From: Nitrososphaerales archaeon
GTDB lineage: Archaea > Thermoproteota > Nitrososphaeria > Nitrososphaerales > UBA213
Reading direction: 5' to 3'
NCBI GenBank assembly: GCA_046759465.1
Contig: JBHICH010000003.1
Span: 2,504 to 66,503, forward strand
Length of the DNA: 64,000 bases
Made by a program: the position numbers and the translations under genes. Under the pieces are notes generated by a model. The model was not told the DNA's origin. It ran no database searches and saw only the letters and a list, made by a program, of their open reading frames with translations. Position 1 is the first letter of the stretch; each line of letters starts with the position of its first letter. This document shows positions 6,744-58,364 of this stretch, piece by piece.

Positions 6744-7487
6744 TTGAAAGTATTCAGGTATATCCCTAGCATTGATGTTCGTCCAAGATACGACACCTTC
6801 GAGGTTCCTGCTGAAAGATGGACTACTGTTCTTGATGCCCTACTTCATGTGAAGGCCTACAAGGATCACTCTATTGCAATCAGGTATTCATGTGGGATGT
6901 CTTCATGTGGTTCCTGTGGCATGATGATCAACGGCATGCCAAAACTTGCTTGCGATACGAAAGTATCTGAACTTAATAATGACACAATTACCTGCGAGCC
7001 AATGGCAAACTTTCCAGTCATAAGGGACCTTGCAACCGACTTTACTAGGTTCTTCCATCACCATAAAGAAATGAGACCTTACATAGTAAACGAGGATGTT
7101 GAAGCGGCAGTTAATGCAGAAACAGGAGAATTTTTGCAGAAACCTAAGCAAGTTGAGGCGTTCCTCCAATTTTCCTACTGCATAAAATGCGGATTATGCT
7201 ATTCTGCATGCCCAACGGTAGCTACTGATAAAAACTTCCCAGGTCCGCAAGCGTTAGCACAAATGTATCGCTACTTGGCAGATAATAGGGATCAATCATC
7301 AGATGAGAGACTGAAGACCGTTGACGACAGACATGGCGTTTGGAGATGCCACTTTGCGGGCTCATGTAGCAAGGTATGTCCAAAGGGTGTTGATCCAGCA
7401 CTTGGCATTCAACTGCTAAGAGGATATATGATGGGATTTTCAAAGAAAGAAAAGAGTACTGCCAAGCTTTACAAGCCTGAAAAATAA
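6744..7487 (+). CDS. sdhB: Succinate dehydrogenase iron-sulfur subunit
   Basis: Three Cys clusters: CGMSSCGSCGMMING, CIKCGLCYSACP and CHFAGSCSKVCP. The start is uncertain. The only in-frame ATG (6609) would overlap sdhD by 121 nt, so TTG 6744 is used here. Confidence 0.9.
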   Translation: MKVFRYIPSIDVRPRYDTFEVPAERWTTVLDALLHVKAYKDHSIAIRYSCGMSSCGSCGMMINGMPKLACDTKVSELNNDTITCEPMANFPVIRDLATDFTRFFHHHKEMRPYIVNEDVEAAVNAETGEFLQKPKQVEAFLQFSYCIKCGLCYSACPTVATDKNFPGPQALAQMYRYLADNRDQSSDERLKTVDDRHGVWRCHFAGSCSKVCPKGVDPALGIQLLRGYMMGFSKKEKSTAKLYKPEK

Positions 7488-12129: not shown

Positions 12130-12234
12130 GCCCTGGTAGTATAGCCTGGTCTAGTATGTGGGCCTGTCACGCCTGCGGCCCGGGTTCAAATCCCGGCCAA
12201 GGAATCACTTCGATGATTCCGCCGAAGGGCGCCA
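12130..12234 (+). tRNA. tRNA-Asp(GUC) with a 27-nt intron in the acceptor-stem 3' strand and a genomically encoded CCA
   Basis: The gene reads GCCCTGG-TA-GTAT-AGCCTGGTCTA-GTAT-G-TGGGC-CTGTCAC-GCCTG-CGGC-CCGGG-TTCAAAT-CCCGG-CCA[intron]GGGC-G-CCA. The anticodon GTC is at 12166-12168 and the discriminator is G. Confidence 0.85.
12200..12226 (+). other. tRNA-Asp intron (27 nt, position about 68/69)
   Basis: Removing it restores CCAGGGC, which is complementary to GCCCTGG. The intron contains a perfect 7-bp hairpin GGAATCA-CTTCGA-TGATTCC. The boundary is ambiguous by 1 nt because both junctions are A. Confidence 0.7.
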
Positions 12235-56602: not shown

Positions 56603-57820
56603 ATGGAAATATCTAAAGATAATCTTAGAAAGCATATTAGTTATTTGGCATCGGGAGAACTAAAAGGTAGAGAATTTGCAAGCGAAGAAGATATGCTGGC
56701 AGCGCAATACATACAAAAACACTTTAAAGAATATGGGCTTGTTGCTCCCAAACAATGCGCTGATTATCTGCAGAAGCTTCCTTTCGGAGGACAGAATGTA
56801 ATTGGCGTTTTAAACGGCAATAATCCAGAACTTTCGACGGAGTGCTTAGTTATAGATGCTCATCACGACCATATGGGACCTGGTTTTGTTGGCGCAAGTG
56901 ATAATGCAGCAGGAGTAGCAATTTTATTGGAACTTGCCAGACTTTTTGCCACAAGTAAAGAGAAAATTCAACGAAGTTTGTTATTCACCTGTTTTGATGG
57001 GGAAGAACAAATTCTCAATATTGATGGCAAAAAACAACTCATGCAGGGAGCAACGTACTACGTTCAGAACCCTGTATTTGACCTGAAGAATATAGCCGCT
57101 ATGTTAACCTTGGACACTCTAGGAAGAAACGCCCTTTCAAATAATTTGATGTTCATTCTTGGAACAGAACGTTCAGTGTTTCTTCAGAGTATAATTGATG
57201 ACTGTCCAACAAATCTTCGAAAGATAATTTTTAGCATTAATATGCTAACTGGAATAAAGGGCAATTATTTACCATTCGTGGATAAGAAGATTCCGAGTCT
57301 CTTTATCACCAATGGAATCCATCAAGATTATCATGGTAAAGGGGATTCTCCTGAAAAATTGTCAGATGAATTGTTGTTTAATGATACTGCATTCTTAATT
57401 GAATTGATTTCTAGAATTGATAATTCTGAAAACAAGCCCGATTTCTGCAGGAATCCAATCTGCCCTCAAGGCGAAGCCGAAGATATTCTTCATTTGCTTA
57501 CTTTATTGAAGGAGGCTGTCAGCAAGAATAGTCCAGAGCGTGCTGATAAGTTTGATTATATAATTAGCAAACTTGCAGGCAAAGCATCACAGAAGGATAT
57601 GAAACAGGCAGTACAGATTGTGTTAGGATTTTCAACTCCTAATTTTGCAAAGTTGTATTTGCTACTTAACGATGCACAAAACGCAGAAAAGAAAAAGGAT
57701 TACAAAAACTCTTTAACCCACTATAATAGAATCCTTGAACTTTACAATGAATACAGAATTCCGTACATCTGGTTACAAGACATCAATGATAAGGTTCAAA
57801 ATTTACAAGAAAGGATTTGA
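56603..57820 (+). CDS. M28-family metallopeptidase with a C-terminal helical/TPR-like region
   Basis: Zn-ligand contexts DAHHDHMG, SDNAAGVAILLELAR and CFDGEE. Confidence 0.8.
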   Translation: MEISKDNLRKHISYLASGELKGREFASEEDMLAAQYIQKHFKEYGLVAPKQCADYLQKLPFGGQNVIGVLNGNNPELSTECLVIDAHHDHMGPGFVGASDNAAGVAILLELARLFATSKEKIQRSLLFTCFDGEEQILNIDGKKQLMQGATYYVQNPVFDLKNIAAMLTLDTLGRNALSNNLMFILGTERSVFLQSIIDDCPTNLRKIIFSINMLTGIKGNYLPFVDKKIPSLFITNGIHQDYHGKGDSPEKLSDELLFNDTAFLIELISRIDNSENKPDFCRNPICPQGEAEDILHLLTLLKEAVSKNSPERADKFDYIISKLAGKASQKDMKQAVQIVLGFSTPNFAKLYLLLNDAQNAEKKKDYKNSLTHYNRILELYNEYRIPYIWLQDINDKVQNLQERI

Positions 57821-57827
57821 GAAATAG

Positions 57828-57960
57828 TGGTAGCCCGGGGCAGATTCGAACTGCCGTCTCCAGGTATCTTCTCCTGGGATCCAGAGCCTGGAATCCCTAG
57901 CCCTTAGAAGATTGACCACTAGATTCGGCGGTGGGTTGCCTCGACCGGGCTTCCCGGGCT
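57828..57960 (-). tRNA. tRNA-Gln(CUG), heavily interrupted (about three intervening sequences), CCA encoded
   Basis: - Acceptor AGCCCGG/CCGGGCT with discriminator A and an encoded CCA, the archaeal tRNA-Gln type.
- T arm GGCAG-TTCGAAT-CTGCC.
- Anticodon arm CCAGG-CTCTGG[15-nt intron]A-CCTGG, with the anticodon at 57882-57884.
- The 5' half carries about 33-42 extra nt.
- The true 5' end may be the second AGCCCGG copy, at 57951. Confidence 0.7.
57866..57880 (-). other. tRNA-Gln anticodon-loop intron (15 nt, position 37/38)
   Basis: Removing it restores the 7-nt loop CTCTGGA between CCAGG and CCTGG. The boundary is ambiguous by 1 nt. Confidence 0.55.
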
Positions 57961-58037
57961 GATAGACTGAAATATTGCTGAGTATTTGTTCTTTTACTTG
58001 TCAGAAAAGATGTTCACTAATCAAAATCTGTTGATAT

Positions 58038-58364
58038 CTATTTTGTGATTGTTTCCCTAACTGCCTGACCATATTCTAGCTTGATCTTTTTCCTCATGTA
58101 TGGTATGATCCTGTAATGTACTGAGTAAACTTCTTTATTTTTGTCTTTGATAAGCAAGCCTTTAACGATAAGGGAAACGAAACCACCTGCCACTTTTGAC
58201 TGGTTGATTTCAGAACTGTTGCAAAAATTATCACGGACTACATGATATTCTTCAATAGAAAAGTATGGCCTGTTGTTCTCCAATATCAACGGCCAGATTA
58301 TGTTTTCCCATACCAGCCTCCTATTTTCAGTTGAAGCGGCATACTTGCCCTTAGTTCTTAGCAT
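58038..58364 (-). CDS. Hypothetical protein (108 aa)
   Basis: A clean ORF between the tRNA and a divergent gene. No motif recognised. Confidence 0.4.
   Translation of the reverse strand: MLRTKGKYAASTENRRLVWENIIWPLILENNRPYFSIEEYHVVRDNFCNSSEINQSKVAGGFVSLIVKGLLIKDKNKEVYSVHYRIIPYMRKKIKLEYGQAVRETITK

Follow-up and report, generated by a model that had tools for sequence, protein, structure and literature searches.

The window analysed here is a stretch of 64,000 nucleotides (nt) from a Nitrososphaerales archaeon (contig JBHICH010000003.1 of assembly GCA_046759465.1, positions 2,504 to 66,503), and taken as a whole our reading is that its minus strand probably carries a functional three-intron tRNA-Gln(CUG) gene of an ammonia-oxidising archaeon of the Nitrososphaeria (Thaumarchaeota), preceded by a leader that acts as a decoy for the acceptor stem. 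The source DNA covered is this 64-kb window. The parts of the locus are listed below, with the basis of each assignment in brackets.

57960..57828, minus strand: tRNA-Gln(CUG) locus with its leader (reading of the window sequence and ortholog comparison)
57954..57960, minus strand: leader copy of the acceptor 5' strand, AGCCCGG, outside the mature tRNA, the proposed decoy (co-occurrence, conservation and folding)
57952..57953, minus strand: spacer GA, from the leader copy to A1 (window sequence)
57942..57951, minus strand: exon 1, AGCCCGGUCG, with the acceptor 5' strand (1-7), U8, C9 and G10 (intronless orthologs; ARAGORN on the spliced product)
57924..57941, minus strand: intron 1, 18 nt, AGGCAACCCACCGCCGAA, at position 10/11, a relaxed bulge-helix-bulge (BHB) motif without outer helix (BHB geometry and relatives)
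57912..57923, minus strand: exon 2, UCUAGUGGUCAA, with D-stem positions 11-13 and the D loop to A21 (ortholog comparison and covariation)
57897..57911, minus strand: intron 2, 15 nt, TCTTCTAAGGGCTAG, between A21 and G22 (21/22) (BHB geometry and relatives)
57881..57896, minus strand: exon 3, GGAUUCCAGGCUCUGG, with the D-stem 3' strand, position 26, the anticodon-stem 5' strand and the loop to G37, anticodon CUG (orthologs and ARAGORN)
57866..57880, minus strand: intron 3, 15 nt, ATCCCAGGAGAAGAT, at the canonical position 37/38 (BHB geometry)
57828..57865, minus strand: exon 4, with A38, the anticodon-stem 3' strand, variable loop AGAC, T arm, acceptor 3' strand, A73 and an encoded CCA at 57830-57828 (sequence and ARAGORN)

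Read along the minus strand from 57960 to 57828, the order is AGCCCGG GA AGCCCGGTCG AGGCAACCCACCGCCGAA TCTAGTGGTCAA TCTTCTAAGGGCTAG GGATTCCAGGCTCTGG ATCCCAGGAGAAGAT ACCTGGAGACGGCAGTTCGAATCTGCCCCGGGCTACCA, in which the gene proper occupies 124 nt (57951..57828) and the preceding 9 nt (AGCCCGG and GA) are the leader. All four exons are colinear on one strand within these 124 nt, an arrangement that is neither that of a split nor that of a circularly permuted tRNA. They join at 57942/57923, 57912/57896 and 57881/57865 into a canonical cloverleaf of a single isotype, as expected of a tRNA gene with BHB introns, and the introns are three in number, with 18, 15 and 15 nt at 10/11, 21/22 and 37/38. 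Their removal in silico leaves a canonical 76-nt tRNA-Gln(CUG) that agrees with intronless Nitrososphaeria orthologs at every position, and for this 76-mer ARAGORN reported tRNA-Gln(ctg) and a normal cloverleaf. The unspliced locus was called neither by ARAGORN nor by Rfam, in gathering or in E-value mode.

In the D stem, G10-U11-C12-U13 pairs with G22-G23-A24-U25, where G10 is supplied by exon 1 and UCU by exon 2. This pairing is fixed because intronless orthologs, which ARAGORN calls directly (L005 and L028 with anticodon UUG, L010 and L024 with CUG; L numbers denote related loci), have it and because pair 12:24 covaries; the mature template, intronless L005, reads AGCCCGG-UC-GUCU-AGUGGUCAA-GGAU-A-.... 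The final base of intron 1 is G, A, U or C in relatives, ahead of UGU, UCU or UGC. Since such variation is neutral only if this base is removed, the base must be intronic and G10 must come from exon 1. With this comparative evidence, we hold the gene structure and its splice junctions with high confidence.

A sequence-only reading of the window had described the locus, and the features it named can all be read directly on the minus strand at 57828-57960: a 3' half with variable loop AGAC, T arm GGCAG-TTCGAAT-CTGCC and acceptor 3' strand CCGGGCT-A-CCA, an anticodon arm CCAGG-CTCTGG[15 nt]A-CCTGG, a D-loop core AGTGGTCAA with additional sequence on either side, and AGCCCGG in duplicate at 57954-57960 and 57945-57951, 9 nt apart. 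Its assignment to tRNA-Gln(CUG) with A1-U72 agrees with ARAGORN on the spliced 76-mer and with the orthologs, its "about three" introns prove to be exactly three, and the sizes it gave for the extra introns hold at 18 and 15 nt. The two D stems that it had offered, ATCT/GGAT or GAGG/CTTC, are both inexact, since the orthologs and the 12:24 covariation give G10/UCU with GGAU. A second CCAGG in the anticodon intron, which it had regarded as an alternative pairing, is incidental: L150, the closest relative, has CCTAGG there, and L155 and L156 lack it. Alignment with related Nitrososphaeria tRNA-Gln genes, which it had called for, resolves the cloverleaf that it could not choose.

Relatives were collected by three routes. 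A scan with the 3' half of the gene, GGCAGTTCGAATCTGCCCCGGGCTA, using one genome per species, gave 29 loci (27 from Nitrososphaeria metagenome-assembled genomes, or MAGs, and 2 from Methanoregulaceae), and homologs of the neighbouring M28 peptidase led to the syntenic contigs L150 (88% protein identity), L155 and L156 (~70%). A metagenome scan with the pattern GCCCGG-N(0-15)-AGCCCGGTSGA gave at least seven tRNA-Gln genes; among the matches listed, 7 of 120 were such genes, and most of the others were chance matches in G+C-rich bacterial contigs. Because 38 related tRNA-Gln genes, from Nitrososphaeria and the two Methanoregulaceae, share the exons while their introns differ, the locus is not a product of chance. 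After in-silico splicing, all 39 collected genes were called tRNA-Gln by ARAGORN, 37 of them as 73-nt cores without CCA (72 nt for L155) and L044 and L067 as 76-mers with CCA.

Over the 22 distinct spliced sequences, cloverleaf pairing reaches 99.6%, and nine pairs show compensatory changes; D-stem pair 12:24 is G-C in the UUG family and C-G in the CUG family, and T-stem pair 49:65 changes in a compensatory manner from G-C to A-U in L155 and L156. Neither column shuffles nor slid registers of these sequences approached this level. Splice sites were picked to fit the template and part of this agreement is thus built in, but that choice has no bearing on the intronless genes or on the 12:24 covariation. 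The syntenic loci L150, L155 and L156 keep both the leader copy and three introns. Between the window and L156, 69 of 73 exon positions are identical, with two of the four differences forming a compensatory pair, as against 12 of 18 positions in intron 1 and 38 of 50 in the upstream 50 nt.

Two observations concern the closest syntenic relatives. The D-arm intron lies at 24/25 in L155 and L156 (central helix CAAG/CUUG) in place of 21/22 (57897-57911 in the window), and both introns contain AGGGCTAG, which suggests sliding or replacement of the D-arm intron over a short evolutionary distance. L155 (Ga0180335_1000513), a tRNA-Gln(CUG) gene, is without U8 (AGCCCGG-CG-intron), gives a spliced product of 75 nt and pairs 2 of 4 positions in the central helix of intron 1; this would be either an assembly error or a damaged allele.

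In the standard archaeal BHB geometry, which was used here, the central helix consists of the four bases 5' of the 3-nt bulge on each strand, and the cut falls after the second bulge base. Intron 1 pairs C5-G6-G7-U8 with GCCG at 4 of 4 positions; its 3-nt bulges are CGA and AAU, and its inner helix is GG/CC. Intron 2 pairs GGUC (G18 G19 U20 C20a) with GGCU, again 4 of 4, and has an inner helix of 2 bp. Intron 3 has an outer helix of 5 of 5 pairs (the anticodon stem), a central helix CUCU/GAAG of 3 of 4 and an inner helix of 2 bp; its C.A mismatch is kept in L150, L155, L156 and L011. All three introns therefore show the 3-nt bulges, the 4-bp helix and at least one flanking helix of relaxed BHB motifs, and relatives are alike. 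The geometry of intron 1 is intact in 22 of 22 distinct intron-1 sequences, among which the central helix varies with pairing kept (U8:G to U8:A, G7:C to G7:U) and the inner helix, of GC, AU, CG or GU type, covaries. An intron of the type and position of intron 2 is found in nine other tRNA-Gln(CUG) genes (L001, L003, L006, L008, L011-L013, L025 and L150). A brute-force enumeration based purely on geometry gave 30 BHB-like sites, of which ARAGORN accepted several combinations; the window sequence alone is ambiguous and comparison with orthologs decides the structure, which matches the impression of the sequence-only reading. Thaumarchaeota have a broad-specificity alpha2beta2 splicing endonuclease (PMC4090602) and possess subunits of ribonuclease P (RNase P; PMC4919917).

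The leader copy goes together with intron 1. Among tRNA-Gln genes found without reference to either feature, all 20 that have a 10/11 intron also have the copy, and none of the 12 that lack the intron does; in the whole set, including pattern-selected genes, the counts are 27 of 27 and 0 of 12. Seven metagenome genes, for which the search pattern demanded both features, were left out of the unbiased count. Both states, leader with intron 1 and neither of them, are found within the UUG family and within the CUG family, so that copy and intron must have been gained or lost together at least twice. The UUG genes of the marine MAGs L002, L007 and L015 are among those with both features. Positions 2-7 of the leader copy are conserved among relatives, with a C to U change in L004, where a G-U pair is kept, as the sole exception, and position 1 is A, G, U or C. 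The spacer has 0-13 nt in the unbiased set and reaches 14 nt once the metagenome-derived genes are counted; forms seen in relatives are none, A, GA, TC, TTT, AGA, AAAA, GAC, 10-nt forms and a 13-nt form. From the co-occurrence and the conservation together, we consider a functional link between leader copy and intron 1 very likely.

Some further observations were made on sequences just upstream of A1. In L003 (JACAEJ010000037.1), which has no 10/11 intron, TCTCGG-T stands immediately 5' of A1 and might be a decayed leader copy. GGU or GGUAGU is found directly 5' of A1 in several genes (L005, L003, L011 and L013) and, in L004, 5' of the leader copy; in the precursor, pairing of this sequence with A73-C74-C75 of the encoded ACCA, to which it is complementary, could lengthen the acceptor helix. 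For other tRNA isotypes in the fetched loci and the window, no intron adjoining the acceptor stem was found, and they gave nothing usable on leader copies.

A possible reason for the link lies in the position of intron 1, the sole intron whose central helix uses acceptor-stem bases (C5-U8), which otherwise belong to a 7-bp G+C-rich helix. The primary transcript would run from about 57960 and contain the 7-nt leader copy, the 2-nt spacer, four exons and three introns, each intron presenting two 3-nt bulges that flank a 4-bp helix, the presumed substrate of archaeal tRNA splicing endonuclease, and cleavage and ligation would yield the canonical 76-nt tRNA with its encoded CCA. For the intron-1 motif to form, C5-U8 would have to pair with the GCCG of the intron and not with the 3' acceptor strand. 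Acting as a decoy, the leader copy would pair with the 3' acceptor strand (66-72) and so remove the strongest competitor while keeping the acceptor/T-arm minihelix. Once intron 1 is out, the decoy would give way to the true 5' strand, and cleavage at A1 by RNase P would make the step irreversible. The decoy proposal would explain the coupling, since an intron without decoy could not be spliced and a decoy without intron would only disturb folding. We put this mechanism and its order of processing at slightly better than even. That the leader copy is a dedicated cis-acting "decoy acceptor strand", a previously undescribed element of pre-tRNA processing that imposes splicing first and RNase P cleavage after, we regard as an evenly balanced proposition. 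Two other roles were rejected after a hand check, namely the leader copy as outer helix of the intron-1 BHB and a leader-trailer BHB cutting at A1, as the required pairings are absent.

Partition-function folding supports the decoy proposal in most of the precursors. Pairing of the leader with the 3' strand has a probability (P) of 0.83-1.0 in 17 of 17 pre-tRNAs, and the central helix of intron 1 reaches P >= 0.79 in 12 of 17 pre-tRNAs with the leader. When the leader is deleted in silico, the central helix falls to P <= 0.13 in 17 of 17, because the true acceptor stem then forms (P 0.94-0.98), and scrambled leader copies give intermediate to low values; further loci fold as these 17 do. An RNAalifold consensus of seven genes that have intron 1 as their sole intron predicts the helices leader:3' strand and C5-U8:GCCG, independently of the decoy hypothesis. 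In the window RNA with all three BHBs drawn, leader pairing is worth ~9 kcal/mol.

Several points weigh against the decoy proposal. The co-occurrence counts are not phylogenetically independent, and the acceptor sequence is invariant in all tRNA-Gln genes, so that covariation between leader and 3' strand is impossible. In the nearest-neighbour model, the central helix of intron 1 has P ~0 even with the leader in the window, L150, L156 and L014, and the model also misses the 21/22 and the canonical 37/38 motifs of the window. The splice-competent drawing lies 13-21 kcal/mol above the minimum free energy (MFE) structure. For the window precursor, the MFE structure pairs the leader copy with the 3' strand and shows none of the three BHBs; the folding model is uninformative for this precursor and was not used for intron placement. 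Fully spliced RNA that still has the leader slightly favours the decoy pairing in the model (0.77 vs 0.22), which leaves tertiary structure and RNase P, both outside the model, to bring about release of the decoy.

Among other explanations, the one to be taken most seriously, unlikely as we think it, is that the upstream AGCCCGG plays no part in processing and is a neutral remnant, left behind either when a short stretch was duplicated in tandem or when intron 1 arose. In favour of this, the copy is only 7 nt long, its position 1 and the spacer drift, and the co-occurrence could partly reflect shared ancestry of a 5' module in the UUG and CUG genes, as AGCCCGGGA is common to the window and the UUG genes L014, L027 and L029. 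A neutral remnant is, however, hard to reconcile with six positions that are fixed across Nitrosopumilales, Nitrososphaerales, Nitrosomirales and other MAG lineages while flanking leader, spacer and intron loops diverge, and with the fact that the only change, C to U in L004, still pairs with G. Neither feature is ever seen alone in the unbiased sample (20 vs 12), although both states occur in each family, and deletion of the copy in silico abolishes the predicted splice motif. Decay of the whole locus as a pseudogene, with the insertions as debris, would fit the failure of standard tRNA finders at the locus and the relative L155 without U8; we think it very improbable. At ~70% identity of the neighbouring protein, exons are 95% conserved as against at most 67% for introns and 76% for upstream DNA, which is the pattern of a functional gene and not of a pseudogene as far as sequence comparison can tell. 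Stem changes are compensatory with all stems paired, contrary to what marks a pseudogene, all three insertions keep exact BHB geometry, and the architecture is syntenic in several lineages.

Two further alternatives place the exons differently, and we give very little credence to either. If the mature tRNA began at the upstream copy, a fourth intron would have to lie between the two copies or reach from the first of them into intron 1; AGCCCGG at 57960-57954 does pair perfectly with the 3' strand, and BHB-like combinations from the brute-force enumeration (e.g. c427) let ARAGORN start a tRNA-Gln at the first copy. But about half of the relatives begin the copy with G, U or C, which would cost them the invariant A1-U72 pair, the copies are adjacent (L022, spacer 0) or 1 nt apart in some genes, too short for a BHB intron, and the products are without U8 and the D-arm register of intronless orthologs. 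The cloverleaves of the sequence-only reading use a D stem AUCU/GGAU with an 8/9 or 9/10 intron, or GAGG/CUUC with 13/14 and 25/26 introns. Both pairings exist, and GAGG:CUUC appears in the MFE structure of the unspliced RNA, yet neither cloverleaf yields the orthologous UC-GUCU-AGUGGUCAA-GGAU of intronless L005 and of L011 and L003. The variable final base of intron 1, neutral only if intronic with G10 from exon 1, also speaks against them, and L155 and L156 have not kept the GAGG and CUUC tracts.

Genes with several introns are known from other archaea. Thermoproteales (Pyrobaculum, Thermofilum) have up to three BHB introns per tRNA gene (PMC4033280; PMC3218864), and the 2021 survey with tRNAscan-SE 2.0 lists in its Table S7 16 three-intron genes, all from Thermoproteales; the 498 tRNA genes of its 11 Thaumarchaeota genomes include no such gene (PMC8450103). 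Thaumarchaeota tRNAs have one or two non-canonical introns, for which tRNAscan-SE 2.0 has a Thaumarchaeota-specific BHB model (PMC8450103). The window gene resembles the Thermoproteales genes in having several short introns, canonical and non-canonical, in a colinear gene, with BHB or relaxed BHB motifs for a broad-specificity endonuclease, and differs in its Nitrososphaeria lineage, its intron set (10/11, 21/22 and 37/38) and its conserved leader copy. With the one- and two-intron tRNAs of Thaumarchaeota it shares the clade, the short relaxed-BHB introns and the poor detection by ordinary tRNA finders, whereas it has three introns, one motif built from acceptor-stem nucleotides and an accessory leader.

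As in the split and tri-split tRNAs of Nanoarchaeum equitans and Caldivirga maquilingensis (PMC4090602, PMC4033280), a sequence outside the tRNA pairs with the precursor and enables a BHB. In those systems this occurs in trans between separate transcripts whose flanks form the BHB; the leader of the window gene is in cis and outside the BHB, and its proposed role is to occupy the 3' acceptor strand and thereby free the true 5' strand. Partial tRNA copies derived from integration, such as the tRNA-Thr fragment of Caldiarchaeum (PMC3293823), likewise lie near a gene, but they are longer and separated from it by a mobile element, while the copy in the window has 7 nt, no element in between and conservation across orders. 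Duplication by a mobile element does not agree with the position of the copy 2 nt upstream of the gene (0-14 nt in relatives) and with no inserted DNA. We found no description of the leader copy or of a decoy in the literature searched, in which coverage of subscription papers was incomplete, so that an earlier description is possible. The window gene is thus of a known kind, a multi-intron tRNA, in a clade without recorded three-intron genes, together with a leader element that we did not find described.

Three introns were found in 7 of the 39 tRNA-Gln genes and four introns in 2 of the 39, the three-intron relatives of the window gene being L150, L155, L156, L003, L018 and L022. The term "extreme" used in the sequence-only reading for the fragmentation of the gene is right insofar as three introns are the published maximum, and overstated insofar as three-intron relatives are common in MAG data and two metagenome contigs have four. 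L018 (MAG UBA141) and L022 (MAG SAT139), both from Thaumarchaeota, are tRNA-Gln(UUG) genes with introns at 10/11, 24/25 and 37/38 and a leader copy; three-intron tRNA-Gln genes are therefore present in several Nitrososphaeria lineages. The three introns of L003 are at 15/16 (16 nt, with a central helix GUCU/GGAU that mimics the D stem), 21/22 and 37/38. Two tRNA-Gln(CUG) genes, L044 (Ga0315280_10080487) and L067 (Ga0315282_10047182), have four BHB introns each, at 10/11 (20 nt), 29/30 (29 nt), 37/38 (21 nt) and 53/54 (14-15 nt), with the leader copy present. The two genes agree in every exon and differ in the introns, and splicing gives a 76-nt tRNA-Gln(ctg); judged from their sequences, these four introns exceed the published maximum of three per tRNA. 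On the minus strand of L006, ~120-150 nt upstream of the match at 7043, there is a tRNA-Arg(CCG) gene with three insertions, one in the D loop (35 nt), one at 29/30 (22 nt) and one at 37/38 (15 nt); its spliced product was called tRNA-Arg by ARAGORN, and no BHB could be fitted to the D-loop insertion.

Upstream of the leader copy there is one further feature.

57983..57997, minus strand: promoter-like block GTAAAAGAACAAATA, an A+T element resembling a TATA box and TFB-recognition element (BRE) (conserved in syntenic L150, L155 and L156)

The block ends 22 nt upstream of the leader copy in the window. Almost every lineage with a decoy has a TATA-like box whose end lies 21-23 nt upstream of the copy, independently of spacer length. 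This spacing suggests that transcription probably starts at or near the leader copy (~57960).

The locus lies between the end of the open reading frame (ORF) of an M28 peptidase at 57820 and the start of an ORF at 58038, in a gap without listed ORFs (>=60 aa). AGCCCGG has five sites in the 64-kb window against ~2.1 expected; three of the five belong to the tRNA-Gln locus, two as its 5' copies and one as the complement of its 3' strand, and the remaining two have no tRNA-like surroundings. A sub-threshold Rfam match to HPnc0260, a bacterial antisense RNA, at 57720-57862 on the plus strand (35.9 bits vs a gathering score of 59) was rejected as spurious, its 3' end being the reverse complement of the acceptor/T-arm region of the tRNA. 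The sole tRNA of the window called by standard tools is an intronless tRNA-Asp(GUC) at 12130-12204 on the plus strand.

Since neither ARAGORN nor the Rfam tRNA model detects this gene or its relatives, genomes of abundant ammonia-oxidising archaea can seem to be without tRNA-Gln, and multi-intron tRNAs in Nitrososphaeria may be undercounted. The strict coupling of leader and intron points to a decoy strand, a simple RNA device that would resolve the conflict in folding between cloverleaf and splice motif. If this is true, it would be a new element of archaeal tRNA maturation by which the order of splicing and 5' maturation is encoded in the precursor, and it would provide a testable rule for where BHB introns settle. 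It would also explain how BHB introns colonise sites beside a very stable acceptor helix, and why decoy and intron are gained or lost only together.

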